Origin: Deltaproteobacteria bacterium
GTDB taxonomy: Bacteria > Desulfobacterota > Binatia > Binatales > Binataceae
Direction of reading: 5' to 3'
Length of the DNA stretch: 64,000 bases
Assembly (NCBI GenBank): GCA_021817345.1
Contig: JAKAVC010000025.1
Coordinates: 4,454 to 68,453 of the forward strand
Position 1 is the first letter of the stretch; every line of letters starts with the position of its first letter. Below are positions 784-32,057 of the stretch, piece after piece. Under the pieces are notes generated by a model, which saw nothing but the letters and a program-made list of their open reading frames with translations, did not search any database and was not told where the DNA came from. A program made the position numbers and the translations under genes.

Positions 784-1542
784 TTGATCCTGATTTTTTA
801 CGCATTCTCACGCGAACTCGGACCGCTCAAGCGAAGGCTCAAGGAGCGCGCGCCGCTCGCCGAGCCGGGGCTTCGCGGCTTCGAGTCGCGCGCCGGCGGG
901 CGGCGAATAGTCTTCGTCGCCACCGGAATCGGCGCCGAACGCGCAGGCGAAGCGGCCCGAATCGCGATGGGTCGCTTCTCGCCCGAACTCGTTATCGGTA
1001 CCGGCGTTGTCGGAGCGCTCTCGGCGGGGCTTTCGCCGGGCGACATCGTTCTCGCGGAGCGAATCATGCTCTCGCCCGAGGGCGAAGGCGCCGTCCAGGA
1101 ACCGGCCATCGCAATCGCCGCCGACACGCTCAGGCATTGCGAGCACGCGCTCAAGCGGGCCGGACTCGATTTCGCGCGCGGCGGGCTTCTCACTTCGCGC
1201 CGAGTGCTCGCCAACGCCCACGCCAAGCTTCGCGCCAAGGAGCAAACCGGCGCGATTGCGGTGGACATGGAAAGCGCCGCGCTCGCATCCGAAGCGATGC
1301 GTCGCGGGATTAAGTTCGCGGTGGTGCGCACCGTGATGGACGCGCTTGAGGACGAAGTGTTCGGCGCTGAACTCGCCGACGGGCAGGGACGCGTGCGTCC
1401 GCTCGCCGCGGCCGGTTACCTTGCGAGAAATCCCGCCGCTATAACGCAACTGCCGCGCATGATGCGAAATCTCTCGCGCGCGACCCGTTCGCTGGCCGAC
1501 GCGATCGAGGCGATTGGCCTGGCCGCGCCGGTGGCGCGCTGA
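784..1542 (+). CDS. hpnG: PNP/MTA-nucleosidase-family hopanoid-associated phosphorylase (HpnG-like)
   Basis: 252 aa with a PNP_UDP_1-like pattern (VFVATGIGAERAGEAA...IGTGVVGAL...AVDMESAALA), adjacent to other hpn genes. TTG start. Confidence 0.6.
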   Translation: MILIFYAFSRELGPLKRRLKERAPLAEPGLRGFESRAGGRRIVFVATGIGAERAGEAARIAMGRFSPELVIGTGVVGALSAGLSPGDIVLAERIMLSPEGEGAVQEPAIAIAADTLRHCEHALKRAGLDFARGGLLTSRRVLANAHAKLRAKEQTGAIAVDMESAALASEAMRRGIKFAVVRTVMDALEDEVFGAELADGQGRVRPLAAAGYLARNPAAITQLPRMMRNLSRATRSLADAIEAIGLAAPVAR

Positions 1543-1563: not shown

Positions 1564-2469
1564 CTACGAGCCGGTCCTGCGCGAGGCCGCCGACGCAAGA
1601 CGCTCATTTTCGTCGCGCCATACCGGGAGAGCGCGCTCGTAGGGAAAATCCGCGAGATGCCGCTCGACCGCTTCGCGATCGCCGTAGCTGTCGGGGCGGG
1701 TCAGGATATGAATTATGAGCGTCGCGAAGGGCAGATAGATGAACACGCTCGCCCACGCGATCTCGTAGGCTCCAATCACGAACAGCATCGTGATCCCGAA
1801 CAGCACGATTCCCGCGTAAAGCAGCGGGCCCATCAGCGCGCGCGACGGAAGCGAGGGAGCCGCGCCCACGGGCTTTTGCCCGCCGCGATTAATCCGCGCG
1901 TCGAGAAGAATGAAGATCGGAATCGTCACCGCCGCGACGAAGTACCATCCGAGATAATTGCTTATCGGTACGCCGAAGTGAGGCCCCGGCGGGTCGTACC
2001 AGAAAATCCTGCCCAAAAACCATCGGTTGCCCAGCACGCTCAGCGGATCGACCACGAAATCGATCATCACCATGAACAGCGCGGCCATCAGCCACACCCG
2101 CGGCGAGCGCCTGAGCTTCCACGTGTCGAGAAGCCGCAGGTCCCATCCCCGCCGATAGAGCGGCGAACTCACCAGCAGCGCAAGCGTGTACGCGGCGAAG
2201 CCCAGAAACGTGAACGACAGCGAATCCATGAAAGGCACGCCGAACACCCAGATTTCGCGGTCGCGGGTCGCCTCGATGTAATGATAAAGCCCGAACGGAA
2301 ATCCGTTGTGCACGGAAGACCATTCGCACCCGAGCGCAACCGCGTAGGTGAGCACGGCGAACAGCACCGTGGTGCGGACGCCGAAGTTGACGATCGAGAT
2401 GAACAGAAAGCTCGCCAGGAAGACGAATACGTAAGGGCGCAGCTCAATCGTGGAAATCAGCAGATGCAT
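1564..2469 (-). CDS. polytopic membrane protein, possibly carotenoid-biosynthesis-associated (DUF422-like) family
   Basis: 301 aa with several hydrophobic segments rich in W/Y/F. It sits at the distal end of the hpn operon. The family call is tentative. Confidence 0.35.
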   Translation of the reverse strand: MHLLISTIELRPYVFVFLASFLFISIVNFGVRTTVLFAVLTYAVALGCEWSSVHNGFPFGLYHYIEATRDREIWVFGVPFMDSLSFTFLGFAAYTLALLVSSPLYRRGWDLRLLDTWKLRRSPRVWLMAALFMVMIDFVVDPLSVLGNRWFLGRIFWYDPPGPHFGVPISNYLGWYFVAAVTIPIFILLDARINRGGQKPVGAAPSLPSRALMGPLLYAGIVLFGITMLFVIGAYEIAWASVFIYLPFATLIIHILTRPDSYGDREAVERHLADFPYERALPVWRDENERLASAASRRTGS

Positions 2470-2482
2470 CGCGTGACGCCGC

Positions 2483-3487
2483 CTAAGCCGCGGCCCGAAC
2501 CGCGCCGCTCGCTCGGAAAAACTCGATCGCGCGGCGAATCGCCTCGTCTATCGGACCGGGCGAGTAGCCCAGCTCGCGGCGCGCTTTCGACGAATCGAAG
2601 AACATCTTCTTGCGCGCCATCCTGACCTCGGTAAGACTCGCGCGCGGCGGCTTGCGGGTTACGGCGCGGGCGAACGCCTCGGCGCCAAGCGCGAATCCAT
2701 AGGCGAGCGCGTAGGGAATCCTGAGCCGCGGCGCGCTCAGCCCGGAAAGATTCGCAAGACGGCGGAAAAATTCCTCCAGCGTAAGGTTCTCGCCGCCCAG
2801 GATATATTTCTCGCCCACGCGCCCGCGCTCGGCGGCCAGCAGATGGCCGCGCGCAACGTCCTCAACATCGACCAGGTTGAGCCCCGTGTCCATGTACGCG
2901 GGCATCCGGCGGTTCAGGAAATCCACGATTATGCGCCCGGTCGGCGTGGGCTTCAGATCGTAGGCGCCGATCGGCGTGGAGGGATTCACGATCACGACCG
3001 GAAGTCCTGCGCGCGCGGCCGAAAGCGCTTCCATCTCGGCGAGAAACTTCGAGCGCTTGTACGGACCGACCATCTCGCCGAGCGTGACCGGAGTATCCTC
3101 GCGTCCCGGACCGTCCGGGGGGATCCCGAGCGCGCCCACCGTGCTGGTATGGACGATTCGGGCGACTTTCGCTTCGCGCGCGGCGGCGAGCACGTTGCGA
3201 GTGCCTTCAACGTTGGTCGCGTACATCGGCGCTTCGTCGCGCAGCCAGAGCCGGTAGTCGGCGGCGACGTGATAGACCTCGGCGCACCCGGCGACTGCGC
3301 GTCTTAGCGAATCAAGATCGCGGAGATCGCCGCGCACCGGCTCGCAATCGACGCCTGACAGCGCGGTAATGTCCGCCCGCTCGCGAACCAGCACGCGCAC
3401 GCGGTCGCCGCGCGCGACGAGCGCGCGCACCACGTGGCATCCCACGAACCCGTTTCCGCCGGTAACCAGCGCCGTCCTCGACGCCAT
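2483..3487 (-). CDS. hpnA: NAD-dependent epimerase/dehydratase, hopanoid-associated sugar epimerase HpnA-like
   Basis: N-terminal TGGNGFVG Rossmann motif and YxxxK-type SDR features (PYKRSK), in the hpn operon. Confidence 0.6.
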   Translation of the reverse strand: MASRTALVTGGNGFVGCHVVRALVARGDRVRVLVRERADITALSGVDCEPVRGDLRDLDSLRRAVAGCAEVYHVAADYRLWLRDEAPMYATNVEGTRNVLAAAREAKVARIVHTSTVGALGIPPDGPGREDTPVTLGEMVGPYKRSKFLAEMEALSAARAGLPVVIVNPSTPIGAYDLKPTPTGRIIVDFLNRRMPAYMDTGLNLVDVEDVARGHLLAAERGRVGEKYILGGENLTLEEFFRRLANLSGLSAPRLRIPYALAYGFALGAEAFARAVTRKPPRASLTEVRMARKKMFFDSSKARRELGYSPGPIDEAIRRAIEFFRASGAVRAAA

Positions 3488-3501: not shown

Positions 3502-4881
3502 CTACGCGGCCACCGCCAGGGTTTTTTCGCCGTGGCGCGCCTCAAGCGCGCGCGCCGCCGCGCGTCCCGACATTACCGCGCTCTCGATCGTCGCGGGAAG
3601 GCCGGTCTGAATCCAGTCGCCGGCAAGGAACAGGTTGGGCACCGGCGTGTTTGCGGTCGGCCGCAGGCGGAAAGTATCGGGCGCGGGCGCCATCGTGGCA
3701 TGCTTTTCCTTGAGCACGAGCGCCTTCACCATCCGCGCCCCGCGCGCCGCGGGAATCATGGCCTTCAGATCGCCGAGCACGATATCGAGCAGCTCATTGT
3801 TGGGCCGCTCGACCAGCTTTCGCGCGCCGCTGATAACGAAGCTCAGATATCCCGGATGACGCTCGCCGTGGCGGGCGAAGATACGCCGCTTGTTGAACAT
3901 CCACTGGGTGGTGGTTCCGATGAAGCCGGCGAAAGCGGCGTCGGTGACTTCGCGGTCGAACCATGCGTGAACGCACACGATAGGCGAGCTTTCGAGCTTG
4001 CCCACGCGCGCGAAAAACGGATCGGATGCGGCGCCGTCGGGCAGGAGGCGGAGCATCTGATGAGGCGGGACGGCGAGCACGAAGTTGCTCGCGCCGAGCT
4101 TTCTTCCGTCGCGAAGCCTGACTCGCGCGACCGCGCCGTCGGCAAACTCGAGCGCCTCGACGTTGCAATGCGCCGCCACCACGCCGTCGCGCTTTTCGAT
4201 AAAATCGGCCGCGGGCTTGCAGTACAGTTCGCTCAGTCCAACCCGCGAATAGACGAACGCGGAATCCGAGCGGCGGCTGAAAAACGCGCGCTTGAGCACT
4301 TCCGCAAGCAGCGCTGCGGAGGAAACTTCGGGCTCGTCGTTCAGCGTCGCGATAGAAAGCGGATACCAGAAGCATTGGCGCGCGCGCTCGCCCTGCTTGA
4401 GCCGGCTCATCAGTTCCGCGACCGTAAGGCCTTCGAGCGCGGCGCGCTCGCGCCGAAGCATCGCGAGCAGCTTCATCCCGCCCGCCATCAGCCGGACACG
4501 CTCGCCTATCCCGAGATGGCGGTAGCGAAGCAGCGCGCCGCTCATATGCAGCGGACCCGGCATCCGCGAGGTCTTGAGCACCGCCTCGGCACCGTTTCGA
4601 TCGAGCATCCGGATTTCCAAATCCTGATGGAAGAAAAGCTTGTCGCGCGAGCCAATCCGCTCAAGGAAATCGAGCGTCTCGTGATAGCAGCCCATCAGGA
4701 CGTGCTGGCCGTTATCGACCTGGTCGCCACCATCCTCCTGCATGAAGGAGTAAGCGCGGCCGCCGAGCTCCGGCTTGCTCTCGAGCACCGCGACGCGGAA
4801 GCCCCGCTCGGCCAGCGCGACCGCGGCGGAAAGCCCGGCGAAACCGCCGCCGACAACCACAACGTCCTTCGCTTCAACCAT
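3502..4881 (-). CDS. hpnE: squalene-associated FAD-dependent desaturase HpnE (amine-oxidase family)
   Basis: N-terminal VVVGGGFAGLSAA dinucleotide-binding motif, 459 aa, located immediately after hpnD. Confidence 0.7.
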   Translation of the reverse strand: MVEAKDVVVVGGGFAGLSAAVALAERGFRVAVLESKPELGGRAYSFMQEDGGDQVDNGQHVLMGCYHETLDFLERIGSRDKLFFHQDLEIRMLDRNGAEAVLKTSRMPGPLHMSGALLRYRHLGIGERVRLMAGGMKLLAMLRRERAALEGLTVAELMSRLKQGERARQCFWYPLSIATLNDEPEVSSAALLAEVLKRAFFSRRSDSAFVYSRVGLSELYCKPAADFIEKRDGVVAAHCNVEALEFADGAVARVRLRDGRKLGASNFVLAVPPHQMLRLLPDGAASDPFFARVGKLESSPIVCVHAWFDREVTDAAFAGFIGTTTQWMFNKRRIFARHGERHPGYLSFVISGARKLVERPNNELLDIVLGDLKAMIPAARGARMVKALVLKEKHATMAPAPDTFRLRPTANTPVPNLFLAGDWIQTGLPATIESAVMSGRAAARALEARHGEKTLAVAA

Positions 4882-4888: not shown

Positions 4889-5788
4889 TCATCCCCTGAG
4901 CGAAGCGATTCTTCCCGAGGCCCATGCCCTGCCGACCAGGTAAAGCTTGCGCGGAGCCGACAGGCCGAGCCTTCGGTCGAGCACGCGGTAATTGGAGCGG
5001 ACTATCCGGGCCAGCAGCGCCCCGTAGATCATCCGCATCGCCTCCGCGGTGCGCAGCGTCGAGCGGTCCTCGGGCGGCATCGCGGCCTCGGCCTCGCGAT
5101 AGAAATTCCGCGCCCGTTTGGCCTCGAATTCCATCAGGCGCACGAAATTCGAGCTATAGACGCGGTTTAGGATCTCTTCTTCGGTCACGCCCATCGCCTC
5201 AAGGTCCTCAAGCGGCAGATAGATACGGCCGCGCGAGGCGTCCTCGCTCACGTCGCGCAGGATATTGGTGAGCTGGAATGCGATTCCGAGTTTTTCCGCG
5301 TAAACCCTGGCGGCTGGATTGGTATAGCCGAAGACCTCGATACAGATGAGGCCGACCGCCGAGGCGACCCGGTAGCAGTACAGGCGAAGCTCGTCGAAGG
5401 TCCGGTAGCGCTTTCGCGTAAGGTCCATCTCGACGCCCGCGATAACTTCCTCGAAGTATTCGCGCGGAATCGTGAAACGGCGCGCCGCGTCGGCCAGCGC
5501 GCGAGAGACCGGGCGAGTCGGCTCGCCACCGTACACGCGGTCGAGTTCCTCGCGCCATCGCGCGAGCATCACGGCCGGATCGCGCACCGCGGCGTCGTCG
5601 GCGATATCGTCGACGAACCGGCAGAAGGCATAGACCGCGTAGAGCGCCTGGCGCCGCTCGGGCGCAAGGAGCATGAACGCGTAGTAGAAGTTGGACGAGG
5701 AGCGCCGGGTTATTTCGGCGCATCGTTCGTAGTCGCGATCGAGTTGCGTGGCTCCCGCTTCGCCTTGAACTGCCGCCTGTTGCCGCAT
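4889..5788 (-). CDS. hpnD: presqualene diphosphate synthase HpnD (squalene/phytoene synthase family)
   Basis: Trans-IPPS head-to-head motifs (YAFCRFVDDIAD, ILRDVSEDASRGRIYLP). The likely start is the internal Met (MRQQ...) whose ATG overlaps the hpnC stop (ATGA). The ORF track start at 5878 overlaps hpnC. Confidence 0.75.
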   Translation of the reverse strand: MRQQAAVQGEAGATQLDRDYERCAEITRRSSSNFYYAFMLLAPERRQALYAVYAFCRFVDDIADDAAVRDPAVMLARWREELDRVYGGEPTRPVSRALADAARRFTIPREYFEEVIAGVEMDLTRKRYRTFDELRLYCYRVASAVGLICIEVFGYTNPAARVYAEKLGIAFQLTNILRDVSEDASRGRIYLPLEDLEAMGVTEEEILNRVYSSNFVRLMEFEAKRARNFYREAEAAMPPEDRSTLRTAEAMRMIYGALLARIVRSNYRVLDRRLGLSAPRKLYLVGRAWASGRIASLRG

Positions 5789-6717
5789 CAGACGCAAAGC
5801 CTCCCAAGCGCCGCGTTCAGTCCAAGCCTGAGATAATCGAGCTTGTTCAGTTTCGGTCTGCTTTGAAAAACGTCGCACCCGGCGCGCTCTATCGCGCGCA
5901 GGATCGCGAGCCCTCCGCCCGCGAACATCAGGATGTCGCGGCGAAGCCGTCGATCGACGAGCCGGTTCAGTTGCGCGCCCTCCCTGAGCATCGCCCGCGC
6001 GACCTCGACTTCGTACCGCATCAGGTCCACGAAGGCTGGCGTCGCCGTGCGGCGCGCGAGATCCCCGGGCGTAACGCCGAAGCGCGCAAGGTCGGCGCGC
6101 GGCAGGTAGATTCGATTCTTGCCGAGGTCAACGGCAACGTCCTGCCAGAAGTTCGCAAGTTGAAGCCCGCTGCATACGAGGTCGGAGAGATACTGGCGCT
6201 CGGGGTCGCGGTATCCAAACAGGTAAAGCACCAGCCGTCCGACCGGATTGGCGGAGTAGCGCGCGTAGCCGAGAAGGTCGTCGAGGGTGTCGAAGCCGCG
6301 GAAGTTGACGTCGGAACGGAACGCGATCAGAAGGTCGGCGAACGGCTCGCGCGGGATATCGTAGCGCCTGACCGTCGCGGCGAGCGCGACAAACACGGGA
6401 TGCCGCGGGTTGCCCGCGTAGCAGAGATCGAGTTCATGCTCCCAGGCGTCGAGCTTGGCGAGGTCGTGCTCTTCGTCGGCGAAGTCGTCGGCCATGCGCG
6501 CGTAAGCGTAAATCGCGTGCATGTGCGGGCGCATCTCGCGCGGCATCAGCCACGACGCGATAGTGAAATTCTCGTAGTGAGACCGGGCAAGGCGGGTGCA
6601 ATACGCGTAAGCCTCGGCCAGTTCCGCGTCCGAATGAGCCTTGGCGGCGGACGAGCCGGCGCGGGCGGCCGGAGGTGCAACCAGGGAGGCGGGATCGGTC
6701 GAAGCGCGGCTCATCAA
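5788..6717 (-). CDS. hpnC: hydroxysqualene synthase HpnC (squalene/phytoene synthase family)
   Basis: Motifs YAYARMADDFADE and NFWQDVAVDLGKNRIYLP, paired with hpnD. Confidence 0.75.
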   Translation of the reverse strand: MMSRASTDPASLVAPPAARAGSSAAKAHSDAELAEAYAYCTRLARSHYENFTIASWLMPREMRPHMHAIYAYARMADDFADEEHDLAKLDAWEHELDLCYAGNPRHPVFVALAATVRRYDIPREPFADLLIAFRSDVNFRGFDTLDDLLGYARYSANPVGRLVLYLFGYRDPERQYLSDLVCSGLQLANFWQDVAVDLGKNRIYLPRADLARFGVTPGDLARRTATPAFVDLMRYEVEVARAMLREGAQLNRLVDRRLRRDILMFAGGGLAILRAIERAGCDVFQSRPKLNKLDYLRLGLNAALGRLCV

Positions 6718-7880
6718 ATCGCGTACCGCCGTTCAAGGAGATTGCGCGTTTCGCGGCGGCTCCATTCATCGACTTCCAGCAGATCCTCGAGCGAGCGCGC
6801 GGGTTTGTTCGGATGGCGCTCCATCACGGTCTCGATACATCGCGGGATGTCCACGAAGCGGGCCCGCCCGGCCAGAAACGCCGCCACCATCTCTTCGTTG
6901 GCCGCGTTCAGGCAGGCCGGCATCGTGCCGCCCGCCGAGAGCGCGTCGTAAGCGAGTCTCAGGCACGGGAACTTCGCGTAGTCGGGCTCCTCGAAGGAAA
7001 GCCGTCCGCAATCGGCGAGCGAAAGGCGCGGCAGATGGCCGAGCGGCAGGCGTTCCGGATACGCCAGCGCATAGGCGATCGGAATCGCCATGTCCGGAAT
7101 CGCCATCTCGGCCAGCACCGAGCCGTCCATCATCTCGACCATCGAGTGGATCACGCTCTGCGGATGAATCACGACCGAGATCTGCTCGCGCGAAAGATCG
7201 AACAGCCATCGCGCCTCGATCACCTCGAGGCCCTTGTTCATCAAGGTCGCGGAATCGATCGTTATCTTGCTGCCCATCCGCCAGGTCGGATGCTTGAGCG
7301 CGTCGGCGACGGTCACTTCGGCGAGCCGCTCCGCGGGAAGCTCGCGGAACGGGCCGCCCGAGGCTGTGAGGATTATCCGCTTGAGCGCGGCGCGCTGACG
7401 GCCTTCAAGGCACTGGAAAATCGCGTTGTGCTCGCTGTCGACGGGGAGCAGATGGACGCCGTGCTCGGCGACCGAACGCGTGACCATCTCGCCCGCGATC
7501 ACCAGCACTTCCTTGTTGGCAAAGGCGATGTCCTTGCCCGCCCGTATCGCGGCGAGCGTCGGCGTAAGGCCAAGCGCACCCACCATCGCGGACATCAGAA
7601 GCCGGGACTCGGGATGGGTCGCGACCGCGATCGCGCCTTCGAGCCCGTGGAGGATTTCGACTCGCTGCCCGCCGAGACGGCGGCTGAGTTCGGCGGCGAG
7701 CGCCGGGGTCGCGACCGAGACCAGCTCGGGCCGAAAGCGCCTGACCTGCTCGGTGAACAGATCGAGGTTTCGCCCCGCGCCCATCGCGACGACGCGAAAC
7801 CGCTCGGGAAAACGTCCGGCCACGTCGAGCGTGTTGACGCCGATCGAGCCGGTCGAGCCGAGAACCGAAAGCGCCTTCAT
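6714..7880 (-). CDS. dxr: 1-deoxy-D-xylulose 5-phosphate reductoisomerase
   Basis: MKALSVLGSTGSIGVNTLDV...LPVDSEHNAIFQ is a canonical Dxr pattern. The start ATG shares one nucleotide with the shc stop (TGATG). The ORF-track N-terminal extension is not used. Confidence 0.85.
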   Translation of the reverse strand: MKALSVLGSTGSIGVNTLDVAGRFPERFRVVAMGAGRNLDLFTEQVRRFRPELVSVATPALAAELSRRLGGQRVEILHGLEGAIAVATHPESRLLMSAMVGALGLTPTLAAIRAGKDIAFANKEVLVIAGEMVTRSVAEHGVHLLPVDSEHNAIFQCLEGRQRAALKRIILTASGGPFRELPAERLAEVTVADALKHPTWRMGSKITIDSATLMNKGLEVIEARWLFDLSREQISVVIHPQSVIHSMVEMMDGSVLAEMAIPDMAIPIAYALAYPERLPLGHLPRLSLADCGRLSFEEPDYAKFPCLRLAYDALSAGGTMPACLNAANEEMVAAFLAGRARFVDIPRCIETVMERHPNKPARSLEDLLEVDEWSRRETRNLLERRYAI

Positions 7881-9859
7881 CAAGCCTGGTCCACCTTCGC
7901 GCCGCCTTCGAGCAGGCGCTTGCGCAAGCGTCCTAGTGCCATCAGCGGAAAGTAGTGCGGATACAAGTGGTAGCGGAGATAGAAGTGGTTGGGGAAGCCC
8001 GCGCCGGTAAATTCCAGCTCGTCCCATCCGCCGCTTTCATTCTGGCGCTCAACGAGCCATCTCACGCCGCGCATCACGTGCTCCGAGACCCCGTCCTCGC
8101 CCGCAAGCAGGCCCATCACGGCCCACGCGGTTTGTGAGGCGGTGCTCGGGCCGCGTCCGCGCCATGCGGGGTCCTTGTCGCTGAGCGGACTTTCGCCCCA
8201 TCCGCCGTCCTCATTCTGGTGGGACTTGAGCCACGCAACCGCCCGCCTTACCCACGACTCGCCGAGGTCCACGCCGATCGCGCGCACACCCATCAGCGCC
8301 GACCACGTACCGTAAAGGTAATTGACGCCCCATCTCCCCCACCATCCGCCGTCGGGCGACTGGTTGCGCTTGAGCCACGCGATCGCGCGGCGGGCGACCG
8401 GATGCTCCGCGCTGTAGCCGACCGCGGCCATCATCTCGAGCGCGCGGCCGGCGAGATCGGGGCAGGAGGGATCGATCACGGCCTCGACGTCGGCGAGCGG
8501 AATCTGGTTGAGCCACCGCTTCTGGACGTCGGCGTCAAAGGCGGCGAATCCGCCGTCACTCGACTGCATCCCCATGACCCAGTTCGCGCCGGCGCGAATC
8601 GAGCGTTCCTTTGCCTGCGCATCGGGAAACTCGGTGCGCGCCATCACCTCGAGGATAACGGCCGAGTCATCGACGTCGGGATACCAGTCATTGTAAAACT
8701 CGAACGCCCAGCCGCCCGGCTCAAGGTCGGGGCGCTTCACCGACCAGTCGCCGCGCTTGAAGATCTGGTGATCGATGAACCACTTGACCGACTGTACGAG
8801 CGCGGGATGGTCGGCGGGCAGGCCGGAATCGAGCAGCGCCTTGGCGGCGAGCGCGGTGTCCCAGTTGGGCGAGACGCACGGCATGTACATCGCGCGGTCG
8901 CCCATCTCCCATACAAGCTCGCGGACTCCTTCGAGCGCCTTTTTGAGCACCGGATGGTCGTTGCGGTAGCCGAGCGCCCTGAGCCCCATCGCGCTCAGCA
9001 GATAGCAGGGCTCGATTCCGCCCCAGGTGCCGTTGGCCTCCTGATGCTCGAGTATCCAGTTCTCGGCGGCCCTGAGCGCTCGGGCGCGAAGCGATTTAAG
9101 GTGATGGCGGTTGTAGAACCTGAGCCCCCCGTCGATCACGTTGAACAGGTTTCGAAGCGAAAACGGACTCTTGCCGGGAGGCTGCTTGAAACGGGTGAAG
9201 TGGGGCGGCTCGATATAAAGTTCGAGCACGCCGTTTCGGAAATCGACCGGCACCACGGGACGCGCCGCCTGCAGCAGCATCAGGCCGAAAGCGGTTCCGC
9301 GCGCCCACGAGGCAAGCTCGTACATGTTGAAGAAGAACCAGTTGGGCAGAAGCGCGACTTCGACCGGCAGCGCGGCGGTCGCCTCCCAGGGCACCTGCCC
9401 CATCGCGGCCAGATAGAATCGCGCGAGCGTCCCCACCTTGGAAATTCCGCCGCGCGACAGAATCCAGCGCCGCGACTGCATCATCGGCTCGTCGCCCGCG
9501 CGCATCCCGGCGAGCTTGAGCGCGAAGTATGCCTCAATCGTGCTCGACAGGTATCCCTCGCCACCCTTATAGAGCACCCAGCTTCCGTCGGTCTCCTGGG
9601 TTTCGAGCAGGAACTTCTTAAGACGCCCCTCGAGTTCGCGGTCAACGGCGTCCATATAGTGCATGAAGATGATGTATTCGGCGTTCATCTCGGCGTTGGC
9701 TTCGAGCGCCGCATGCCAATAGCCGTCGGGATGCTGCTGGCCGATGAGGGAACGCTGCGCGCGGTCGATCGCGAAGCCGATCCTCGCCACGAATTCGTCG
9801 CGCGTCACGTCGGCAACGCGAACCTCGCCGTTTTCCACCTGTTGAAGAGCTTCACTCAT
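7880..9859 (-). CDS. shc: squalene-hopene cyclase
   Basis: 659 aa with multiple QW repeats (DGGW, DGSW), the DVDDSAVI motif (DxDD catalytic Asp), and class-II terpene cyclase length. Confidence 0.9.
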   Translation of the reverse strand: MSEALQQVENGEVRVADVTRDEFVARIGFAIDRAQRSLIGQQHPDGYWHAALEANAEMNAEYIIFMHYMDAVDRELEGRLKKFLLETQETDGSWVLYKGGEGYLSSTIEAYFALKLAGMRAGDEPMMQSRRWILSRGGISKVGTLARFYLAAMGQVPWEATAALPVEVALLPNWFFFNMYELASWARGTAFGLMLLQAARPVVPVDFRNGVLELYIEPPHFTRFKQPPGKSPFSLRNLFNVIDGGLRFYNRHHLKSLRARALRAAENWILEHQEANGTWGGIEPCYLLSAMGLRALGYRNDHPVLKKALEGVRELVWEMGDRAMYMPCVSPNWDTALAAKALLDSGLPADHPALVQSVKWFIDHQIFKRGDWSVKRPDLEPGGWAFEFYNDWYPDVDDSAVILEVMARTEFPDAQAKERSIRAGANWVMGMQSSDGGFAAFDADVQKRWLNQIPLADVEAVIDPSCPDLAGRALEMMAAVGYSAEHPVARRAIAWLKRNQSPDGGWWGRWGVNYLYGTWSALMGVRAIGVDLGESWVRRAVAWLKSHQNEDGGWGESPLSDKDPAWRGRGPSTASQTAWAVMGLLAGEDGVSEHVMRGVRWLVERQNESGGWDELEFTGAGFPNHFYLRYHLYPHYFPLMALGRLRKRLLEGGAKVDQA

Positions 9860-9908: not shown

Positions 9909-10967
9909 CTAGGGAACCACGGCGCACTTGAGCGCTTCGCCGCGTTCGAGCATCGAGAACACTTCGCCAAGTTCGGCCAGCGGCCGGCGGGCGTTGACTA
10001 TCGCGCCGGCTCCGATTTTGCCCTCGCCGAGCATCTCGAAAGCGCGCTTTACGTCGCGCGGCCGGAAATGAAACGGCGCAAGCAACGTCAGGTTGTCGTA
10101 ATGCATCCGGCGCGTATCGACTTTAAGCGTGGTATCGGCGGGGCATCCGCCAAAGAACACGACTCGCCCGCCGCGGCGCACGCGCCTGAGCGCGTCCTGC
10201 CATCCGTCGAGCTGTCCGGTGCACTCGATCACGAGATCGGGGCCGAAGCCCGCGTTGAGCGAGGCGACCGCGCCTTCCGAGTCGTTGCGGCTGACGTCGA
10301 TCACGCGGTCGGCGCCGAGTTCGCCCGCCCACTCAAGCCGTTTTGCCCCGCGCCCGGCGATCGCCACTTCGCGCACGCCGCGCGCCCGGAGCGCGAGCAT
10401 GTGCAGGAGCCCGAACGGGCCCGCGCCGACGATAAGAACCGACTCGAACGGCTCGGGCCGCGCCATCTCTTGCGCGTGCACGACGCACGCGAGCGGTTCG
10501 AGCAGCGCGGCCTCCTCGAAGCCGAGATGCTCGGGCTTGATAAAGGCGTTGCGTGCGACCACGTGCGCGGGAACCAGCAGATAATCCGCGTACGCGCCCA
10601 TCAGCATCCGTTCCATCGTCTGCGCGCACAGGTTTTCCTGCCCGCGCTGGCAATAGAAGCAGATTCCGCACGGCGCCGTCGGCGCGGCCATCATCGCGTC
10701 GCCCGGTTTGAAGCCGCGCACGCCTTCGCCCACCTCGACCACCACGCCGGCGAATTCGTGTCCGAACGGAGTCGGCAGTTTCCACACCGGATGGCCGCGG
10801 CGATAGGTCTTCAGATCGGTTCCGCAGCTCAGCGCGCACGCGACGCGCACCAGCACTTCGCCGCGCGCCGGACGGGGCGGCCTGAAGTCGCGGAGTTCGA
10901 GATGCCCCGGCGCAACCAGCACCGCCTGGCGGGCGGATAAGGGCGCGGTTGTTGCGAAGTTGGTCAA
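9909..10967 (-). CDS. zinc-binding medium-chain alcohol dehydrogenase (threonine/sorbitol-DH-like)
   Basis: CGTD...GHEFAGVVVEVG catalytic Zn motif, CGICFYCQRGQENLC structural Zn site, and a GAGPFGLL Rossmann motif. 4-nt overlap with ispA. Confidence 0.7.
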   Translation of the reverse strand: MTNFATTAPLSARQAVLVAPGHLELRDFRPPRPARGEVLVRVACALSCGTDLKTYRRGHPVWKLPTPFGHEFAGVVVEVGEGVRGFKPGDAMMAAPTAPCGICFYCQRGQENLCAQTMERMLMGAYADYLLVPAHVVARNAFIKPEHLGFEEAALLEPLACVVHAQEMARPEPFESVLIVGAGPFGLLHMLALRARGVREVAIAGRGAKRLEWAGELGADRVIDVSRNDSEGAVASLNAGFGPDLVIECTGQLDGWQDALRRVRRGGRVVFFGGCPADTTLKVDTRRMHYDNLTLLAPFHFRPRDVKRAFEMLGEGKIGAGAIVNARRPLAELGEVFSMLERGEALKCAVVP

Positions 10968-11848
10968 AGCTTTCGCTCCACCACGAACACGGCAAGCGCG
11001 CGAAGCGGCTCGGCACGCCCGTCAAAATTCGAAAGCGCGGCAATCGCGCGGTTGGAAAGCTCACGGGCGAAATCGCGCGAGCGCTCAAGCCCGAGCAGTC
11101 CTGGATAGGTGTTCTTGCCGTGCGCCTGATCCTTGCCCGTGCGCTTGCCCATCTGCTCGGTCGAGGCTTCCACATCGAGGATGTCGTCGACCACCTGGAA
11201 GCAGAGCCCGAGCGCCTTGGCGTACACCGAGAGCGACTCCATCTCGGCCGCAGTCGCGCCGCCAAGACGCGCCCCTCCGCGCACGGAGGCGAGAAACAAC
11301 GCGCCGGTCTTGCGCCCATGCAGATATTCCAGCTCCGCGAGTTCCATCGCGCGCCCTTCGCCGAGCAGATCGATAACCTGCCCCGCGACCATCCCGCGCG
11401 AGCCCGCGGCCTCCGACAATTCCGCAATCGTTTGCGCAACGAGCGCCGGCGCCACAAGCGGCGAACGCGCCAGCACGCCAAACGCATCGGTCAAAAGCGC
11501 GTCGCCCGCCAGCGTCGCGAGCGCCTCGCCGTAGACCTTGTGATTGGTCGGCCGGCCGCGGCGCAGGTCGTCGTCGTCCATGCAGGGAAGATCGTCATGG
11601 ATGAGCGAGTAGGTGTGAATCATCTCGACCGCGCAGGCAAACGACGCGGCGTCGTCAATCGCGCCGCCAACCGCCTCGCACGCGGCTAAGGCAAGGATAG
11701 GGCGCAGGCGCTTTCCGCCGTCGAGCAGGCTGTAGCGCATCGCCTCGTTAAGCCGCGCCGACGGGCCTTCGGACCCGGGCACCGCCGCGTCGAGCAGGCG
11801 CTCGACGAGCGAGGCCCGTTCCTTCAGATAACGGTCAAGTTCAAACAC
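10964..11848 (-). CDS. ispA: polyprenyl (farnesyl) diphosphate synthase
   Basis: FARM motif LIHDDLPCMDDDDLRRG and SARM motif FQVVDDILD; 294 aa. Confidence 0.75.
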   Translation of the reverse strand: MFELDRYLKERASLVERLLDAAVPGSEGPSARLNEAMRYSLLDGGKRLRPILALAACEAVGGAIDDAASFACAVEMIHTYSLIHDDLPCMDDDDLRRGRPTNHKVYGEALATLAGDALLTDAFGVLARSPLVAPALVAQTIAELSEAAGSRGMVAGQVIDLLGEGRAMELAELEYLHGRKTGALFLASVRGGARLGGATAAEMESLSVYAKALGLCFQVVDDILDVEASTEQMGKRTGKDQAHGKNTYPGLLGLERSRDFARELSNRAIAALSNFDGRAEPLRALAVFVVERKL

Positions 11849-11964: not shown

Positions 11965-12969
11965 TCAGGCCATGTAGTGGCGCACCATCCGCCAGGAATC
12001 CTTGATGTTCTTGCCGAACTCGAGAGCGGCCGTTCCCTCGAACCCTGAATGCAGCTTGCAATCGCGGCATCGGAAGTCCTGCTTGGTGCGATAGAACTCC
12101 CAATCGGTCGCCTCGTGAAGCTGCTTGAACGTCTTGTAATGGCCGTTGGTGATGAGATAGCAGGGCCCCTTCCATCCCTGTGGATTACGCGTGACCGTGG
12201 TCCACGGGCTGCACGAGAGATCGCGGTCGCCGGTCAGGTAATCGAGGTAGATGGGCGTGTTGATGATCTTGTAGTGGTCGGCGAGCTCGCGCACCCGGCG
12301 GAACTTGAACGGCATCTCGTCGCTCTTCAGGTAGATGTCGTCGTTGGTCAGCACCTGGTAGTGATAACCGGGCGTGAGCAGCATCCCGTCCACGCCGAGG
12401 CCCGCGAGCATCTTGATCAGCTCTTCGAGTTCCTCGGTGGTGGTCTCGCGGAAGACCGTGGTGTTGGTCTGGACCCGGTAGCCCTTCTCCTTGAGCATCT
12501 TGATCATCTTGACGCAGGTGTCGAAGACACCCTGCTTGTCGACCACGCGATCGTGCGTTTCGCGCATGCCGTCGAGATGGATGTTGAAGCTAAGGTACGG
12601 GCTGGGCGGCACCTGGCGGACGAAGCGTTCGAGCAGGATCGCGTTGGTGCAGATCTGCACGTGACGCTTCTGCTGCTCGATCAGCCCCCTGGTGAGCGGG
12701 ACGATATGCTTGTACATGAGCGGCTCGCCGCCGCAAATGGACACGATCGGCGCGTCGCATTCCTCGGCCGAGCCGAGCGCTTCTTCCAGCGGCATCATGT
12801 CGCGGATCGTGTCCTTGTATTCGACGATCCGCCCGCATCCGATACAGGCGAGGTTGCACGCATGAAGCGGCTCGAGCATCAGCACCAGCGGAAAATACTT
12901 CTCGCCCGCCTTGCGCTTGCGGCGCATGTACCGGCCGAGGTCCGTCATCAGTTTAAGCGGCATACGCAT
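11965..12969 (-). CDS. hpnH: adenosylhopane synthase, radical SAM (HpnH)
   Basis: CNLACIGCG radical-SAM cysteine motif near the N-terminus, about 334 aa, closely matches the HpnH family. It is the first gene of the minus-strand hpn operon. Confidence 0.8.
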   Translation of the reverse strand: MRMPLKLMTDLGRYMRRKRKAGEKYFPLVLMLEPLHACNLACIGCGRIVEYKDTIRDMMPLEEALGSAEECDAPIVSICGGEPLMYKHIVPLTRGLIEQQKRHVQICTNAILLERFVRQVPPSPYLSFNIHLDGMRETHDRVVDKQGVFDTCVKMIKMLKEKGYRVQTNTTVFRETTTEELEELIKMLAGLGVDGMLLTPGYHYQVLTNDDIYLKSDEMPFKFRRVRELADHYKIINTPIYLDYLTGDRDLSCSPWTTVTRNPQGWKGPCYLITNGHYKTFKQLHEATDWEFYRTKQDFRCRDCKLHSGFEGTAALEFGKNIKDSWRMVRHYMA

Positions 12970-13009: not shown

Positions 13010-13756
13010 TCAATGCTCGGCCTTGACGGCCTCCGTGGCTTCCCGTTCCGAGGCGTGAAACAGCCACTGGTCGACCATCGAGACGGCCGACTCCGGATTC
13101 ATCGTGGCCCTCGGCATAAACAGGAATTCGATCATGAGCCCGTTCAACGCCGAAAGGATGAAACCTGCGGCGTCCTCGGGCGTAAAGCCGCTCGCGCAGA
13201 CTCCGCGATGCTGAGCGCGCGAGATTAGCTCGACTAACATGTTCCGGTATCCGCTGTAGAGCCGCATGATCTGCTCGCCCAGCCCTTCGGAAAGGCGCTG
13301 CTCGCGCAGCATCTGGGCCAGGAAGAAGCGCACCGAATTGGCGTGGTCGCGCACAAAGAGCAGGTAGAACTCGACCAGCCTCAGGATCTGATGGCGCTCG
13401 TCGAGCATCCGCGATTCTTCGGCAAAGTCGATGAAATAAGGCTCCAACAGCCGGTTCAGGACCGCCAGGAAAAGTTCTTCCTTGGTTTTGAAATGCCAGA
13501 AAATCAGGGCCTTGCTGACTCGCGCCTCGCGCGCGACTTCCGACATCGAAGTCTCATGGAAGCCGCGGTTGGCGAAAAGTTGCGTCGCAGCCTTTAGAAT
13601 CTCGTCGCGCGAGTCCTGCGACTGCTGTCCGTGGCTTTCCTGCGACTGTCCCTTGAGTTGAGATCCAACCATGCTAAGGAAATGGTCCCGCGGCATTCGC
13701 CGACCCTCGGACGCGCCGCTCAGGCCTTCCGGCCTCGATCGAAGCGCCCTTCCCAT
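13010..13756 (-). CDS. TetR/AcrR-family transcriptional regulator
   Basis: HTH region FANRGFHETSMSEVAREARVSKALIFWHFKTKEELF. The true start is likely an internal Met (MPRDH or MVGSQ). Confidence 0.7.
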   Translation of the reverse strand: MGRALRSRPEGLSGASEGRRMPRDHFLSMVGSQLKGQSQESHGQQSQDSRDEILKAATQLFANRGFHETSMSEVAREARVSKALIFWHFKTKEELFLAVLNRLLEPYFIDFAEESRMLDERHQILRLVEFYLLFVRDHANSVRFFLAQMLREQRLSEGLGEQIMRLYSGYRNMLVELISRAQHRGVCASGFTPEDAAGFILSALNGLMIEFLFMPRATMNPESAVSMVDQWLFHASEREATEAVKAEH

Positions 13757-13898: not shown

Positions 13899-14912
13899 CT
13901 ACCCCGCGAGCGCGATCTCCGCGCCGGTGCGAGCCGACGATTCCCGGGCCGCCTCAATAAGCCGAAGCGCGGTCGATACTTCCCTGATGTTCCGAAGCGC
14001 GGCTGCCGAGCCCGGACCCTCCCCTATCGCCTGCTCGAATTCCGCCGCAACCCCGGCGAACCATGCCGAGTGATAGCTGTCGTCGGGCGCGTCAACGACC
14101 GAAAGATCCTCAGTCCTGCCGCCTCGCTCGGTCAGGATGAGGCGGTCGCCCTCGATCTCAAGCGCCGCGCGCTCGCCGTAAAGCGATGCCGAGGTGCGTC
14201 TGACCGGCGCGCGCCACGACATATGCGAGCGGCCAATCCGCCCGCTCGAAAACCTGACCCAAAGATCGGCGACATCCTCGACCTCGCCCTCCCTGCCGAC
14301 GCCGAGATGCGCCGATACCCCAAGCGGCGCGTCGCCGCCCATCAGCGACTGCATCAGGTACGACACGTGCCATCCGTGATCGACGAGGATTCCGCCGCCG
14401 AGCGCGCCGGCCGCGCGCCAGCTTCCCGGTCCGCCGGCGGGCTGGGTCCTCAGCCGTTCGATATTCAGCAGCGTAAGCGCGCCGAGCCTGCCCGACGCAA
14501 CAAGTTCGAGCGCGCGCCGATAACTCGGCGAATGCTTCCAGTTATGCACGCACATCAGCACGCGCGAGACGCGCGCCGCCATTTCAGCGAGCGCGGTGAA
14601 TTCACCGATACCGAGGCAGAGCGGTTTCTCGCACAGCACGTGCGCGCCGGCTTCGAGCGCCGCCCGGATAGCGGGAGCGTGAAGCGCCGGCGGGCTCGCT
14701 ATATCGATGAAGTCGGGCGACTCACCCGCTAGCATCAATTCGAGGTCGTCATAGACGCGGACGTTATTCGCAAGCCGCATCGCCAGATGACGCCGCTCGG
14801 AGAGCGGGTCGTGAACCGCGACGATGCTGACGCCGGGGCGCGAAAACCATCCTGGCAGATGGCCCCGGGCCGCAACCTCGCCGAAGCCGGAAATTACCCC
14901 GCGCAGTTTCAC
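13899..14912 (-). CDS. Gfo/Idh/MocA-family NAD(P)-dependent oxidoreductase
   Basis: N-terminal KLRGVISGFGEVAARGHLPGW Rossmann motif and an EKPL motif. The likely GTG start at 14912 overlaps the stop of the upstream LLM gene (GTGA). The ORF-track start at 14951 is also possible. Confidence 0.6.
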   Translation of the reverse strand: MKLRGVISGFGEVAARGHLPGWFSRPGVSIVAVHDPLSERRHLAMRLANNVRVYDDLELMLAGESPDFIDIASPPALHAPAIRAALEAGAHVLCEKPLCLGIGEFTALAEMAARVSRVLMCVHNWKHSPSYRRALELVASGRLGALTLLNIERLRTQPAGGPGSWRAAGALGGGILVDHGWHVSYLMQSLMGGDAPLGVSAHLGVGREGEVEDVADLWVRFSSGRIGRSHMSWRAPVRRTSASLYGERAALEIEGDRLILTERGGRTEDLSVVDAPDDSYHSAWFAGVAAEFEQAIGEGPGSAAALRNIREVSTALRLIEAARESSARTGAEIALAG

Positions 14913-15775
14913 ATCCAGGCGCGCGCGATATCCTCGAGCTCGCTCTCCCACTTGTCGGGCGCGAGACTCGGCGGAAACAGGACCAGGCGATGCGCTCCGG
15001 CGCGCTCATATTCGCGGGCGGCGGCGTGAGTGTCCTTGCCGCCCGCCGGTGCGAACACGGAGATCTCGATTTTGCCGAAATCACGGCCCGCCTCGGCGCA
15101 GAGCTTCCTCAGAGTCTGCAACTGCTCGGCAAGTTCGGCGGGCGACAGCATCAGCGGTCCCCATCCGTCGCCGATTGCAACCGTATTCTTCATTGCGCGC
15201 TCGCCGCCGGCGCCGATGCCGCCCGCTCCGATCAGGATTGGAGGATGCGGCTTCTGCGCGGGCTTCGGGTAGCTTCTGACCGGCGGGAACTTGACGAATT
15301 TGCCCTCGAAGCTGGGCTCGGGCCGGGTCCAGAGTTGCTTCATCGCGCGCACGTACTCGCGCGTCATCGGCCATCGCCGGCGAAAATCGACGCCCATTAT
15401 CTCGCTTTCGTCCTTGAGCCATCCCGCGCCGATACCGAAGATGAAGCGCCCGCCGGAATAATGATCGAGCGTGGCGACCTCCTTGGCGAGCAGGAGCGGG
15501 TTGCGTTCCGGAACCAGGCAGATTCCGGTGCCGAGCTTGATTTTGCTGGTCGCGGCGGCCGCCAGCGCGAGCGCCATGAACGGATCGGGCATGTGCGAGT
15601 AAACTTCCGGTATAACGCCGTCGCGGCTGGCCGGATAGGGCGTCACATGATGGACGGGGATTATCGGATGCTCGGGGATGAACAGCGAGTCGAAGCCAAG
15701 CTGCTCGCATTTGCGCGCAACCGGGCCGGGTTCGGCGGTGTACTCGGCGATAAACGCGAGAATTCCTATCTTCAT
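14909..15775 (-). CDS. LLM-class (luciferase-like) flavin/F420-dependent oxidoreductase
   Basis: 288 aa with a bacterial-luciferase-like pattern (GFDSLFIPEH, GTGICLVPERNPLLLAKEVATLDHYSGGRF). Confidence 0.6.
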   Translation of the reverse strand: MKIGILAFIAEYTAEPGPVARKCEQLGFDSLFIPEHPIIPVHHVTPYPASRDGVIPEVYSHMPDPFMALALAAAATSKIKLGTGICLVPERNPLLLAKEVATLDHYSGGRFIFGIGAGWLKDESEIMGVDFRRRWPMTREYVRAMKQLWTRPEPSFEGKFVKFPPVRSYPKPAQKPHPPILIGAGGIGAGGERAMKNTVAIGDGWGPLMLSPAELAEQLQTLRKLCAEAGRDFGKIEISVFAPAGGKDTHAAAREYERAGAHRLVLFPPSLAPDKWESELEDIARAWM

Positions 15776-15866
15776 GCGGCGCCTCCCGTGGCGAGGTTCA
15801 GATGGCGAGACCAGTTTTTAGCGCGAACCAGCGCCCTGCGCCATCGAGCGGCGCGCCCTCTCGCGT

Positions 15867-16373
15867 TCATCGCCAGCCGAAGAAATCCTTCGCGTAGATG
15901 AAGCGGCCGACGCCTGCGGCGCGCGCCGCCTGCTCGTCGATTTCCTGGTCACCGACCATCGTCGAGGCCGAAAGATCGACTCCATACATGGCGGCCAGTT
16001 CTTCGATCATCCCGGGCCGCGGCTTGCGGCATGCGCATCGGTCGGCGTCGTCGTGCGGGCAGACCATCCATCCGCTCAGGATTCCGCCCAGTTCTTCGTC
16101 GAGCCTCGCAAGCGCCGCCTCGACCTTCTCCATCGTGACCCGGCCGCGCTTGATGCCGGCCTGGTTGGTGACGACGAAAATCAGATGGTCGCGCATCGGG
16201 CCGAGCCTTTCGGCCACGCCGGGCAGGAGCCTGAGCACGACGTTTCCGTTCGCGTCGAGCGGAAGCTGGCGCGTCTCGTCCATCTCCACGAGCGTTCCGA
16301 CGAGGTCGCAGAAAAGGGCCTGGTTGCCGGCCGCTTCAGTCATCGCGGGCAGCCCCTTCAGGCGGCGCGCCAA
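15867..16373 (-). CDS. HAD-superfamily phosphatase, GmhB (D,D-heptose-1,7-bisphosphate phosphatase)-like
   Basis: DxD motif (FCDLVGTL), VTNQAGI, and a C-terminal GDQEIDEQAARAAGV. 16-nt overlap with the aminotransferase gene. Confidence 0.5.
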   Translation of the reverse strand: MARRLKGLPAMTEAAGNQALFCDLVGTLVEMDETRQLPLDANGNVVLRLLPGVAERLGPMRDHLIFVVTNQAGIKRGRVTMEKVEAALARLDEELGGILSGWMVCPHDDADRCACRKPRPGMIEELAAMYGVDLSASTMVGDQEIDEQAARAAGVGRFIYAKDFFGWR

Positions 16374-17728: not shown

Positions 17729-17774
17729 CTAATGGCCCGCGAGACCGCTCCTTTCATACAAAACCGCTGCCGTC

Positions 17775-18599
17775 TCAACGCGTGCGGCGTATCAACCTCA
17801 TCGCCCGCCGCGCAATCGCGCGCGCCGCGGGCGCACGAACCTGGCTATAACTGGGCCAGTCATTAAAGTCGATAATCGCAAAACGTCCGCCACTCAAGAC
17901 CGCGTCTCCGCCCCACGCCTGCAGGCCGAGCGCCGCCGCCGCAACCGAGGCGGCCTCGGCAAGCTCGCGCGCGACGTTGGCGGCGACTTCGCCTTCCTCG
18001 CCCAGCACCGAGAAGTATTCGCCGCCGCTTACGCCATAAAACTTGACGACCCTTCCCTCGACGGCCTGCTGAACGTAAACCGTATGAACACCCCGGCGGG
18101 CGAACGCCCGGATCGTCTCGAGCAGCGGCGCCTTGCCGACCACCTTTTGCACGTCGTCGGGTCCAAGTGCGTGCAGGTCGCCGCGCTTGACGTAAACTCC
18201 GGCGTCGAGATCGAGTGGGGTCAGCGCCTTGAGATTGACCGGCTCGGCGGTGCCGAGGACGGCTCCGTCGGGCGTGGGCACACCGGCGCGCATCAGCCCA
18301 ATCCCGAGCAGGTCGCGATAGCAGTTGCGAATCGCGAGCGCCGTGTTGAGCGTCAGAACGCCGCGTGCCTCCATCTCGGCCACCCGCTTGAGCGCGGCCT
18401 CGCCCTGGCACATGACCAGCAGCAGGTCGGCGCCGACCGGGTCGGTTCCCGCGGCAAAAGTCTTCGCGTCAAGGGCCGAAGTTTCCACGCCGAGCAACGA
18501 AAGCTCGTGGAGCACGGCGTCCATGATTGCGGCATCAGCCTCGACCTTCCCTGGGGAGAACTCATGCTCGCGATAAATACCGATTGCGCGATGCGTCAT
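17775..18599 (-). CDS. ATP-grasp-like ligase (RimK/GshB-like fold), unknown substrate
   Basis: 274 aa with a pre-ATP-grasp-like N-terminus, GVPTP, a VYVQQAVEGRVVKFYGV nucleotide-binding-like segment, and a C-terminal AIIDFNDWPS (ExN-like). Remote call made by eye. Confidence 0.4.
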   Translation of the reverse strand: MTHRAIGIYREHEFSPGKVEADAAIMDAVLHELSLLGVETSALDAKTFAAGTDPVGADLLLVMCQGEAALKRVAEMEARGVLTLNTALAIRNCYRDLLGIGLMRAGVPTPDGAVLGTAEPVNLKALTPLDLDAGVYVKRGDLHALGPDDVQKVVGKAPLLETIRAFARRGVHTVYVQQAVEGRVVKFYGVSGGEYFSVLGEEGEVAANVARELAEAASVAAAALGLQAWGGDAVLSGGRFAIIDFNDWPSYSQVRAPAARAIARRAMRLIRRTR

Positions 18600-32053: not shown

Positions 32054-32057
32054 CTGC

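Follow-up and report, generated by a model that had tools for sequence, protein, structure and literature searches.

A gene for a zinc-dependent alcohol dehydrogenase (ADH) is an integral, selected member of the hopanoid gene string of the Binataceae. We describe it from a stretch of 64,000 nucleotides of an uncultured Deltaproteobacteria bacterium (GTDB family Binataceae; assembly GCA_021817345.1, contig JAKAVC010000025.1, positions 4,454 to 68,453), analyzed as a whole and referred to here as the window. Bacteriohopanepolyols rank among the main lipids of bacterial membranes, and the geohopanes that serve as molecular fossils derive from them. From its sequence and genomic context, we tentatively propose that the ADH may be an NADPH-dependent reductase acting on the ribose-derived side chain of hopanoids, in the simplest form of the proposal on the C-35 aldehyde of open-chain ribosylhopane to give bacteriohopanetetrol (BHT). 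We consider this assignment possible and hold it with limited confidence.

On the minus strand of the window the genes follow one another in the order TetR, hpnH, ispA, ADH, shc, dxr, hpnC, hpnD, hpnE, hpnA and a CruF-like membrane protein. When one genome was scanned for each GTDB species, 35 loci were returned, one of which (L037) was set apart as an unrelated medium-chain dehydrogenase/reductase (MDR) of Brocadiaceae on a short contig. The other 34 keep the window order as far as each contig extends, with a GFO/IDH/MocA oxidoreductase ahead of the TetR gene and an HpnG-like gene beyond the CruF-like one. Together with locus L001 and eight metagenome contigs they make 43 Binataceae-type loci, and within contig reach the run of hpnH, farnesyl-diphosphate synthase (ispA), ADH and squalene-hopene cyclase (shc) is present in all 43. 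Median identity and dN/dS are 71.5% and 0.18 for the ADH, against 72.2% and 0.215 for shc. An earlier sequence-only reading of this DNA had allowed that the ADH might be an "unusual passenger" in a core hpn operon; because its position is fixed in 43 loci and it is under purifying selection like that on shc, this alternative is rejected. Three loci with ADH identities of only 40-51% (L036, L038, L039) were considered as divergent lineages or pseudogenes and this was discarded: frameshifts affect every gene of these long-read assemblies, which indicates ordinary Binataceae loci with assembly errors.

The ADH is a 352-residue open reading frame that fills exactly the interval 9909..10967 (minus strand), and its GC content by codon position (0.73/0.49/0.82) resembles that of the neighboring genes. 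Identity to its homologues goes as high as 93%; few of these have a named source, and several of those that do are from Candidatus Binataceae. The start codon of the gene overlaps the ispA stop codon in TTGA, with a TTG start at 10967-10965 and a TGA stop at 10966-10964, and GGAG lies 8 nt 5' of the TTG. Translational coupling to ispA had been proposed earlier through ATGA; the overlap itself stands, while the sequence was misread. The junction is GTGA in about 27 of 32 Binataceae relatives, and the wider motif GAGCG(C/A)AAGCT-NTGA is kept in about 27 of the 32 loci. An alternative start is offered by a conserved GTG or ATG, represented here by the GTG at codon 16, which would give a protein of about 337 residues; in most relatives the conserved GTG/ATG lies at least 18 codons downstream of the NTGA junction. 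Residues between the two candidate starts are poorly conserved, and residues 1-10 are disordered in the AlphaFold2 model. Either start leaves the gene inside the same tightly packed string, 49 nt separate its stop from the shc start, and the ADH is probably co-transcribed with the other genes. The sole sigma-70-like site lies at 13843-13816, just upstream of the TetR gene, in a promoter/terminator scan that performed at chance level and whose count of promoter-like sites did not exceed random expectation.

By domain content and fold, the protein is a Zn-dependent MDR of the polyol/threonine-dehydrogenase branch. PF08240 (ADH_N) covers residues 35-138 (E 2.4e-26) and PF00107 (ADH_zinc_N) residues 186-313 (E 8.8e-19), both above the gathering score, and Glu_dehyd_C matches with an E-value of 1e-11. 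Pfam and the NCBIfam matches of the neighbors thus bear out the gene, family and position given by the sequence-only reading, a medium-chain Zn-ADH between ispA and shc. The catalytic zinc ligands C48, H70 and E71, the second-sphere E157, a four-cysteine structural zinc site (C100, C103, C106, C114) and a GxGxxG dinucleotide motif (G181-A-G183-P-F-G186) are all present. The AlphaFold2 model has a predicted local distance difference test (pLDDT) score of 94 and superposes on threonine dehydrogenases, sorbitol dehydrogenases, a ketose reductase, 4EJ6 and E. coli YdjJ, with template-modeling (TM) scores of 0.86-0.90 to MDR structures; the closest PDB chains are at most 31% identical. The protein reaches no NCBIfam equivalog cutoff. 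The best-scoring models, for Tdh, give 151.8 bits against 458.35 and 156.7 against 380, and IolM, YdjJ-type PRK10083, galactitol-1-P 5-dehydrogenase, L-idonate 5-dehydrogenase, AdhP and Ahr give 59-145 bits against cutoffs of 344-550. None of the hopanoid-specific TIGRFAM/NCBIfam models (HpnA-HpnR) matched. A hopanoid-sounding label, "HpnZ_proposed" (TIGR03366), belongs to a phosphonate-associated ADH model that scored 110 bits against 328, and it was dropped.

A search of 1.84 billion representative proteins revealed a step in identity, from a Binataceae group at or above about 70% to a broad set at 35-51% that shares the motifs TCGTDLK.Y and FH.TP. We define this subfamily as ADH1, and use ADH2 for a second MDR, about 30% identical to ADH1, that occurs in tandem with it. 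Across 85 ADH1 sequences the catalytic and structural zinc residues are invariant or near-invariant. C48, H70 and E157 are kept, E71 nearly always, and K53, H289, Y290, F299 and H300 are near-invariant; about 78 of the 85 carry the combined signature of these nine residues (string CKHEEHYFH) without change. In a neighbor-joining tree the window protein falls within ADH1 and not with ADH2, and in the alignment it shows the full signature. In the tree, ADH1 proteins of Terriglobales and of the L107 type share one branch, and those of Binataceae lie elsewhere, among stand-alone sequences.

A metagenome scan with the family profile contributed 80 loci, for 125 in all, each inspected over 10 kb on both sides; 8 of the 125 contigs are too short for a context call. 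One of the metagenome loci, L120, carries the order ispH, shc, hpnA, hpnG-like, ADH2, ADH1, hpnC, hpnD, hpnE; among the proteins 83-93% identical to its ADH1, the few that have a named source come for the most part from Terriglobales, Korobacteraceae or Acidobacteria. Two further Terriglobales contigs keep this order, one of them also with hpnH, and in L104, L107 and L122 an hpnD-like gene directly follows ADH1. No cupin gene was found in the Terriglobales loci, and both ADH2 and cupin are absent from the window and from the 10-kb surroundings of every Binataceae locus. Hopanoid clusters of two phyla therefore include ADH1 genes from at least two separate branches, at positions that differ. 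The synteny survey suggested by the sequence-only reading, for recurrence near shc or hpnH in other phyla, accordingly gave a positive answer, with an invariant arrangement in the 43 Binataceae loci and a separate Terriglobales branch next to hpnG and hpnC.

Part of this association is already on record. In acidobacterial hpn clusters, a Zn-binding ADH of about 350 residues called "ug2" precedes hpnC, and "ug1" follows hpnA-hpnG (Sinninghe Damsté et al. 2017, Front Microbiol 8:968, PMC5462960); that paper places ug2 in all subdivision 1 and 3 Acidobacteria strains. From gene order as described there, ug2 would correspond to ADH1 and ug1 to ADH2, and ADH1 is an otherwise uncharacterized MDR subfamily matching the description of ug2. 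Both the window protein and ug2 are Zn-binding ADHs of about 350 residues among hpn genes, and the ug2-like Terriglobales proteins share with the window protein the ADH1 clade, the CKHEEHYFH signature and the absence of an NAD-specifying Asp. They differ in that the window protein is only 37-39% identical to Terriglobales ADH1 and sits on a different tree branch, and in that the acidobacterial gene stands after ADH2 and before hpnC, whereas in Binataceae a lone gene, coupled to ispA, stands between ispA and shc. What is new here is this Binataceae arrangement, the link across phyla, the ADH1 subfamily, the module of ADH1, ADH2 and cupin described below, and the cofactor prediction.

Outside hopanoid clusters, ADH1 commonly occurs in a module with ADH2 and, in part, a cupin (L002, L003, L004, L040, L041, L042 and 41 metagenome loci, e.g. 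L044 2005-4512 and L048 10001-14177). The ADH2 of this module has the NAD-type Asp, the cupin is a small metal-binding Cupin_2 protein, and in 10 module loci a membrane protein of 73-98 residues precedes ADH1. Six homologues of the window protein at 43-51% identity in long contigs, among them those of Desulfuromonas versatilis, a Nitrospirae bacterium and a Blastocatellia bacterium, are all ADH1-ADH2 tandems, three of them also with Cupin_2, and none has hpn genes within 10 kb. No curated family was found for any of the three module proteins ADH1, ADH2 and Cupin_2. A further ADH1 subclade (L081, L082, L086, L101, L108, L116, L119) is of the Asp (NAD) type, has ADH2 upstream rather than downstream, and adjoins genes for 2-oxoacid dehydrogenase E1/E2 in what resembles an acetoin or butanediol-like catabolic context.

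The closest solved chains to the window protein are 4EJ6/4EJM, a putative Zn-binding dehydrogenase of Sinorhizobium meliloti, and 5VM2, E. coli YdjJ/ECK1772 (E 1.6e-38, TM 0.88-0.90). 4EJ6 likewise lacks the NAD-type Asp, but identity is 27-30% and both proteins are of unknown specificity, offering no functional pointer. L-threonine 3-dehydrogenase (TIGR00692/PRK05396; PDB 2DFV, 2D8A, 3GFB) provides the best curated score and the best structural match, with a similar structural zinc lobe and ligand set; its models nevertheless score 152-157 bits against 380-458, identity is at most 29%, and the cofactor site differs. Sorbitol dehydrogenase (SDH) and the NADP(H)-dependent ketose reductase (PDB 1PL6, 3QE3, 1E3J) have the same fold (TM 0.86-0.89), and the SDH branch shares the Cys-His-Glu zinc ligands, the second-sphere Glu, a Thr or Ser after the catalytic Cys and an F-x-aromatic motif in the same place. 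Identity to this branch is 28-29%, however, and the window protein has the ADH1-invariant K53, H289-Y290 and H300, the last aligning with an Arg of sheep SDH. It also keeps the four-Cys structural zinc site, which mammalian SDH is not known to have. T50, E157 and F299-H300 align with the substrate-binding motif of SDH, and these SDH-like pocket positions suggest a polyhydroxylated substrate.

The cofactor site points to NADPH. The Asp that binds the NAD ribose in sheep SDH aligns with Gly205-Arg206 of the window protein, and the same position is Val-Lys-Arg in Terriglobales ADH1 and Gly-Lys-Arg in L107, while an NAD-type Asp/Glu is found in 41 of 41 ADH2 proteins. In the NADP-dependent ketose reductase 1E3J, the Asp is presumably likewise exchanged for a small residue followed by Arg at the end of beta-2, resembling the window protein. 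Since the hpn-embedded ADH1 copies lack the NAD-specifying Asp, they are predicted to use NADP(H).

In the mechanism that we propose, HpnH would add the adenosyl group, the HpnG-like enzyme would then remove adenine, and the ADH would act after both, on the C5 side chain of C35 hopanoids. The catalytic zinc, held by Cys48, His70 and Glu71, would polarize a carbonyl of the side chain and NADPH would deliver the hydride; in the simplest case the aldehyde at C-35 of open-chain ribosylhopane would become BHT. The ribosylhopane-to-BHT step is said to have been shown in cell extracts in 2015, when Bodlenner and colleagues reportedly found cell-free ribosylhopane reduction in Methylobacterium to use NADPH. 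No enzyme is assigned to it: a 2025 survey states that the enzyme is still to be established (PMC12583986), a 2026 review names none (PMC13459092), and in the literature to 2026 we found neither an assigned ribosylhopane reductase nor a detailed treatment of Binatota hopanoid genes. The vacancy noted by the sequence-only reading hence still exists. Several observations speak for the ADH as its occupant, namely the fixed position, the conserved ispA overlap, selection like that on core genes, the association in a second phylum, the match to ug1/ug2 and the lack of an assigned enzyme. The preceding steps appear to be encoded in the same cluster, with hpnH in the same string and the HpnG-like gene adjoining it (although the latter scores below its family cutoff), and an active site of the polyol-dehydrogenase type would fit a polyhydroxylated side chain.

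Several observations weigh against this assignment. The usual substrates of polyol-type MDRs are secondary alcohols and ketones and not aldehydes. Most family members stand apart from hopanoid genes: 47 of the 125 loci are ADH1-ADH2 modules without hpn genes (18 with cupin), another 21 have neither ADH2 nor hpn genes, and the non-hpn loci include Desulfuromonas versatilis, Nitrospirota and Blastocatellia, the last a group whose cultured members lack hopanoids according to the 2017 study (PMC5462960). The Asp-type subclade beside 2-oxoacid dehydrogenase genes shows that the ADH1 family is functionally mixed. The substitutions common to both hpn-embedded branches are only the minor F104, A297 (G297A) and V336, none of them catalytic, so that the sequences suggest no active-site specialization relative to stand-alone copies and no pointer to a lipid substrate. 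The neighbors differ by phylum (ispA/shc or hpnG/hpnC), and adjacency therefore does not identify the step. The same operon contains hpnA, an equally unassigned reductase-type gene. HpnA (TIGR03466, a short-chain dehydrogenase/reductase (SDR) "sugar epimerase") is, like the ADH, an NAD(P)-dependent oxidoreductase-type member of the hpn cluster; it is, however, an extended SDR without zinc, from an unrelated superfamily, and far more widespread in hpn clusters. The 2017 study proposes HpnA, not ug1 or ug2, for ribosylhopane to BHT, and cites HpnA as dispensable for BHT in Burkholderia and absent from Rhodopseudomonas (PMC5462960), while the 2025 survey considers its function not established (PMC12583986). 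The BHT producer Chloracidobacterium thermophilum is described in the 2017 paper as lacking ug2 (PMC5462960), and near the hpn clusters of Alphaproteobacteria a survey turned up no new candidate (PMC12583986); this enzyme can therefore not be a universal solution. The suggestion in the sequence-only reading that the ADH is a credible BHT reductase candidate thus gains from its recurrence in hpn clusters and loses from the many family loci without hpn genes and from BHT made without ug2. In a broader form, ADH1 would be the missing NADPH-dependent enzyme from ribosylhopane to BHT in both Binatota and Acidobacteriota, two phyla abundant in soil, alone in Binataceae and accompanied in Acidobacteria by the NAD-type ADH2, with which it might set the C-34 stereochemistry, and the ADH1-ADH2-cupin module would be the ancestral soluble-sugar version that gave rise by recruitment to the hopanoid enzymes; we regard this broader proposal as possible but less likely than not.

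The ADH could instead be a general sugar or polyol oxidoreductase for the soluble metabolite of the ADH1-ADH2-cupin module, such as a pentose, a 5-deoxypentose or a polyol derived from the methylerythritol phosphate (MEP) pathway, so that its hopanoid link would be indirect. Most family loci lack hpn genes, the signature residues do not vary with context and the hpn-embedded copies are unspecialized, Blastocatellia and marine metagenomes also contain members of the family, and MEP genes adjoin the ADH clusters in the form of dxr here and of ispH in Terriglobales. This explanation must, however, accommodate two branches stably embedded at different positions in the hopanoid clusters of two phyla, as well as the tight coupling with ispA. 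In these clusters the module is moreover split, with ADH1 alone in Binataceae and ADH2 plus ADH1 without cupin in Terriglobales, which suggests recruitment of single enzymes and not of a complete side pathway; we consider a soluble substrate somewhat unlikely. A different redox step on the hopanoid side chain is also conceivable, whether reduction of a 34-keto group that sets or inverts C-34 (the acidobacterial ADH1 and NAD-type ADH2 then forming an oxidize-then-reduce pair), oxidation of the ribosylhopane hemiacetal to the lactone ribonylhopane, or formation of a keto intermediate for amino-hopanoids. The nearest structures, SDH, ketose reductase, and xylitol and arabinitol dehydrogenases, act on secondary alcohols or ketoses, and the Terriglobales pairing of NAD-type ADH2 with NADP-type ADH1 is as expected of an epimerizing pair. 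The Glu_dehyd_C match, the ribonylhopane reported in mutants (PMC4263297) and a class-III aminotransferase upstream in the window also fit such steps. Binataceae ADH1 nonetheless stands alone, with no partner ADH2 or cupin at any of its loci, the general objections raised above apply equally, and a step of this kind appears unlikely.

The flanking genes could instead hint at a function in the supply of squalene or isoprenoid precursors, for instance a redox reaction whose substrate would be a prenyl alcohol, a prenyl aldehyde or hydroxysqualene. The neighbor of the ADH is ispA in the window, hpnC in Terriglobales and an hpnD-like gene in L107 and L122, and such an association is stated in the 2017 paper (PMC5462960). 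Yet the established pathway to squalene through HpnD, HpnC and HpnE needs no dehydrogenase, the polar, polyol-type active site (K53, H289, Y290, H300) is not what a prenyl chain would lead one to expect, and C. thermophilum, as described in that same paper, makes squalene without ug2 (PMC5462960), which together render this role improbable. That the gene encodes an L-threonine 3-dehydrogenase of housekeeping metabolism, or some other MDR that only travels with the operon and is unrelated to it, is very improbable: Tdh models are the best NCBIfam matches and threonine dehydrogenase is the top structural match, but the scores fall far below the cutoffs, identity to solved threonine dehydrogenases stays under 30%, no 2-amino-3-ketobutyrate ligase (kbl) partner is found among the annotated neighbors, and position and purifying selection are constant across the 43 loci.

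The remaining genes of the string and their family matches are collected in the table. The ATG of dxr and the stop codon of shc share one base (TGATG, positions 7878-7882, minus strand), and the mechanically called dxr reading frame, starting at 8027, is over-extended by 49 codons.

Table. Coordinates of the dehydrogenase gene, its overlap with ispA and the neighboring genes in the window.
Feature	Coordinates	Strand	Basis
ADH1-type Zn-dependent medium-chain dehydrogenase/reductase	9909..10967	-	Pfam ADH_N + ADH_zinc_N
TTGA start/stop overlap of ispA and ADH	10964..10967	-	read directly; GTGA in most relatives
TetR-family regulator, first gene of the string	13010..13756	-	Pfam TetR_N
hpnH, adenosyl-hopene transferase (radical SAM)	11965..12969	-	TIGR03470, 393 bits, above cutoff
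ispA, farnesyl-diphosphate synthase	10964..11848	-	NF045485 FPPsyn, 359 bits, above cutoff
shc, squalene-hopene cyclase	7880..9859	-	TIGR01507, 725 bits
dxr	6714..7880	-	NF009114, 533 bits, residues 50-434 of the long reading frame matched
hpnC, squalene synthase	5788..6717	-	TIGR03464, 322 bits
hpnD, presqualene diphosphate synthase	4889..5878	-	TIGR03465, 335 bits
hpnE, hydroxysqualene dehydroxylase	3502..4881	-	TIGR03467, 441 bits
hpnA, hopanoid-associated SDR, rival candidate reductase	2483..3487	-	TIGR03466, 467 bits
CruF/Caroten_synth-like membrane protein, last in the string	1564..2469	-	TIGR03460/NF045693 weak matches; PF04240 on the L001 orthologue
HpnG-like nucleoside phosphorylase/hydrolase, convergent with the cluster	784..1542	+	TIGR03468 best NCBIfam match

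At the downstream end, the HpnG-like gene of the window (784..1542) keeps its position in Binataceae loci and scores 100 bits with TIGR03468, below the cutoff of 187; the corresponding gene of L120 (5258-6112) scores 85. The Binataceae copies evolve fast, with 35-54% identity within the family, and together with those of Terriglobales they may represent a divergent subfamily of HpnG, or else relatives of methylthioadenosine (MTA)/futalosine nucleosidases. The CruF/Caroten_synth (PF04240)-like protein is kin to carotenoid 1,2-hydratases, is 72-82% identical among the Binataceae loci that reach that far, and could hydrate a double bond of a hopanoid or of squalene.

On the 5' side of the TetR gene, a co-linear module at 13899-20040 (minus strand) is present in about one third of the Binataceae loci. 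It encodes a GFO/IDH/MocA oxidoreductase, an F420-type LLM oxidoreductase, a HAD-IIIA phosphatase, a class-III aminotransferase (possibly HpnO-like), a 274-residue protein (17775-18599) with no Pfam or NCBIfam match, a sugar-phosphate nucleotidyltransferase and a HAD-IA hydrolase, and it might supply a polar head group for composite hopanoids. Further out and divergent from the cluster, a CDP-alcohol phosphatidyltransferase-like gene is followed by an overlapping B12-binding radical SAM gene with weak similarity to HpnJ/HpnR (20955-23473, plus strand). Unrelated to the hopanoid cluster, genes for a phage-type integrase at 30863-32053 on the minus strand and for a DUF3631 protein at 33082-34674 on the plus strand suggest a small mobile island at 30863-34674.

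If the ADH1 family handles a soluble sugar, the finding would be an ordinary one. As it stands, the window ADH is a concrete, clonable candidate for the gap between ribosylhopane and BHT. Subdivision 1 Acidobacteria are dominant bacteria of soil and peat, and some Acidobacteria are culturable, so that genetics of ug1 and ug2 may be possible. Should the exact step prove to differ from the one proposed, the ADH would still be a new tailoring enzyme of the hopanoid side chain.

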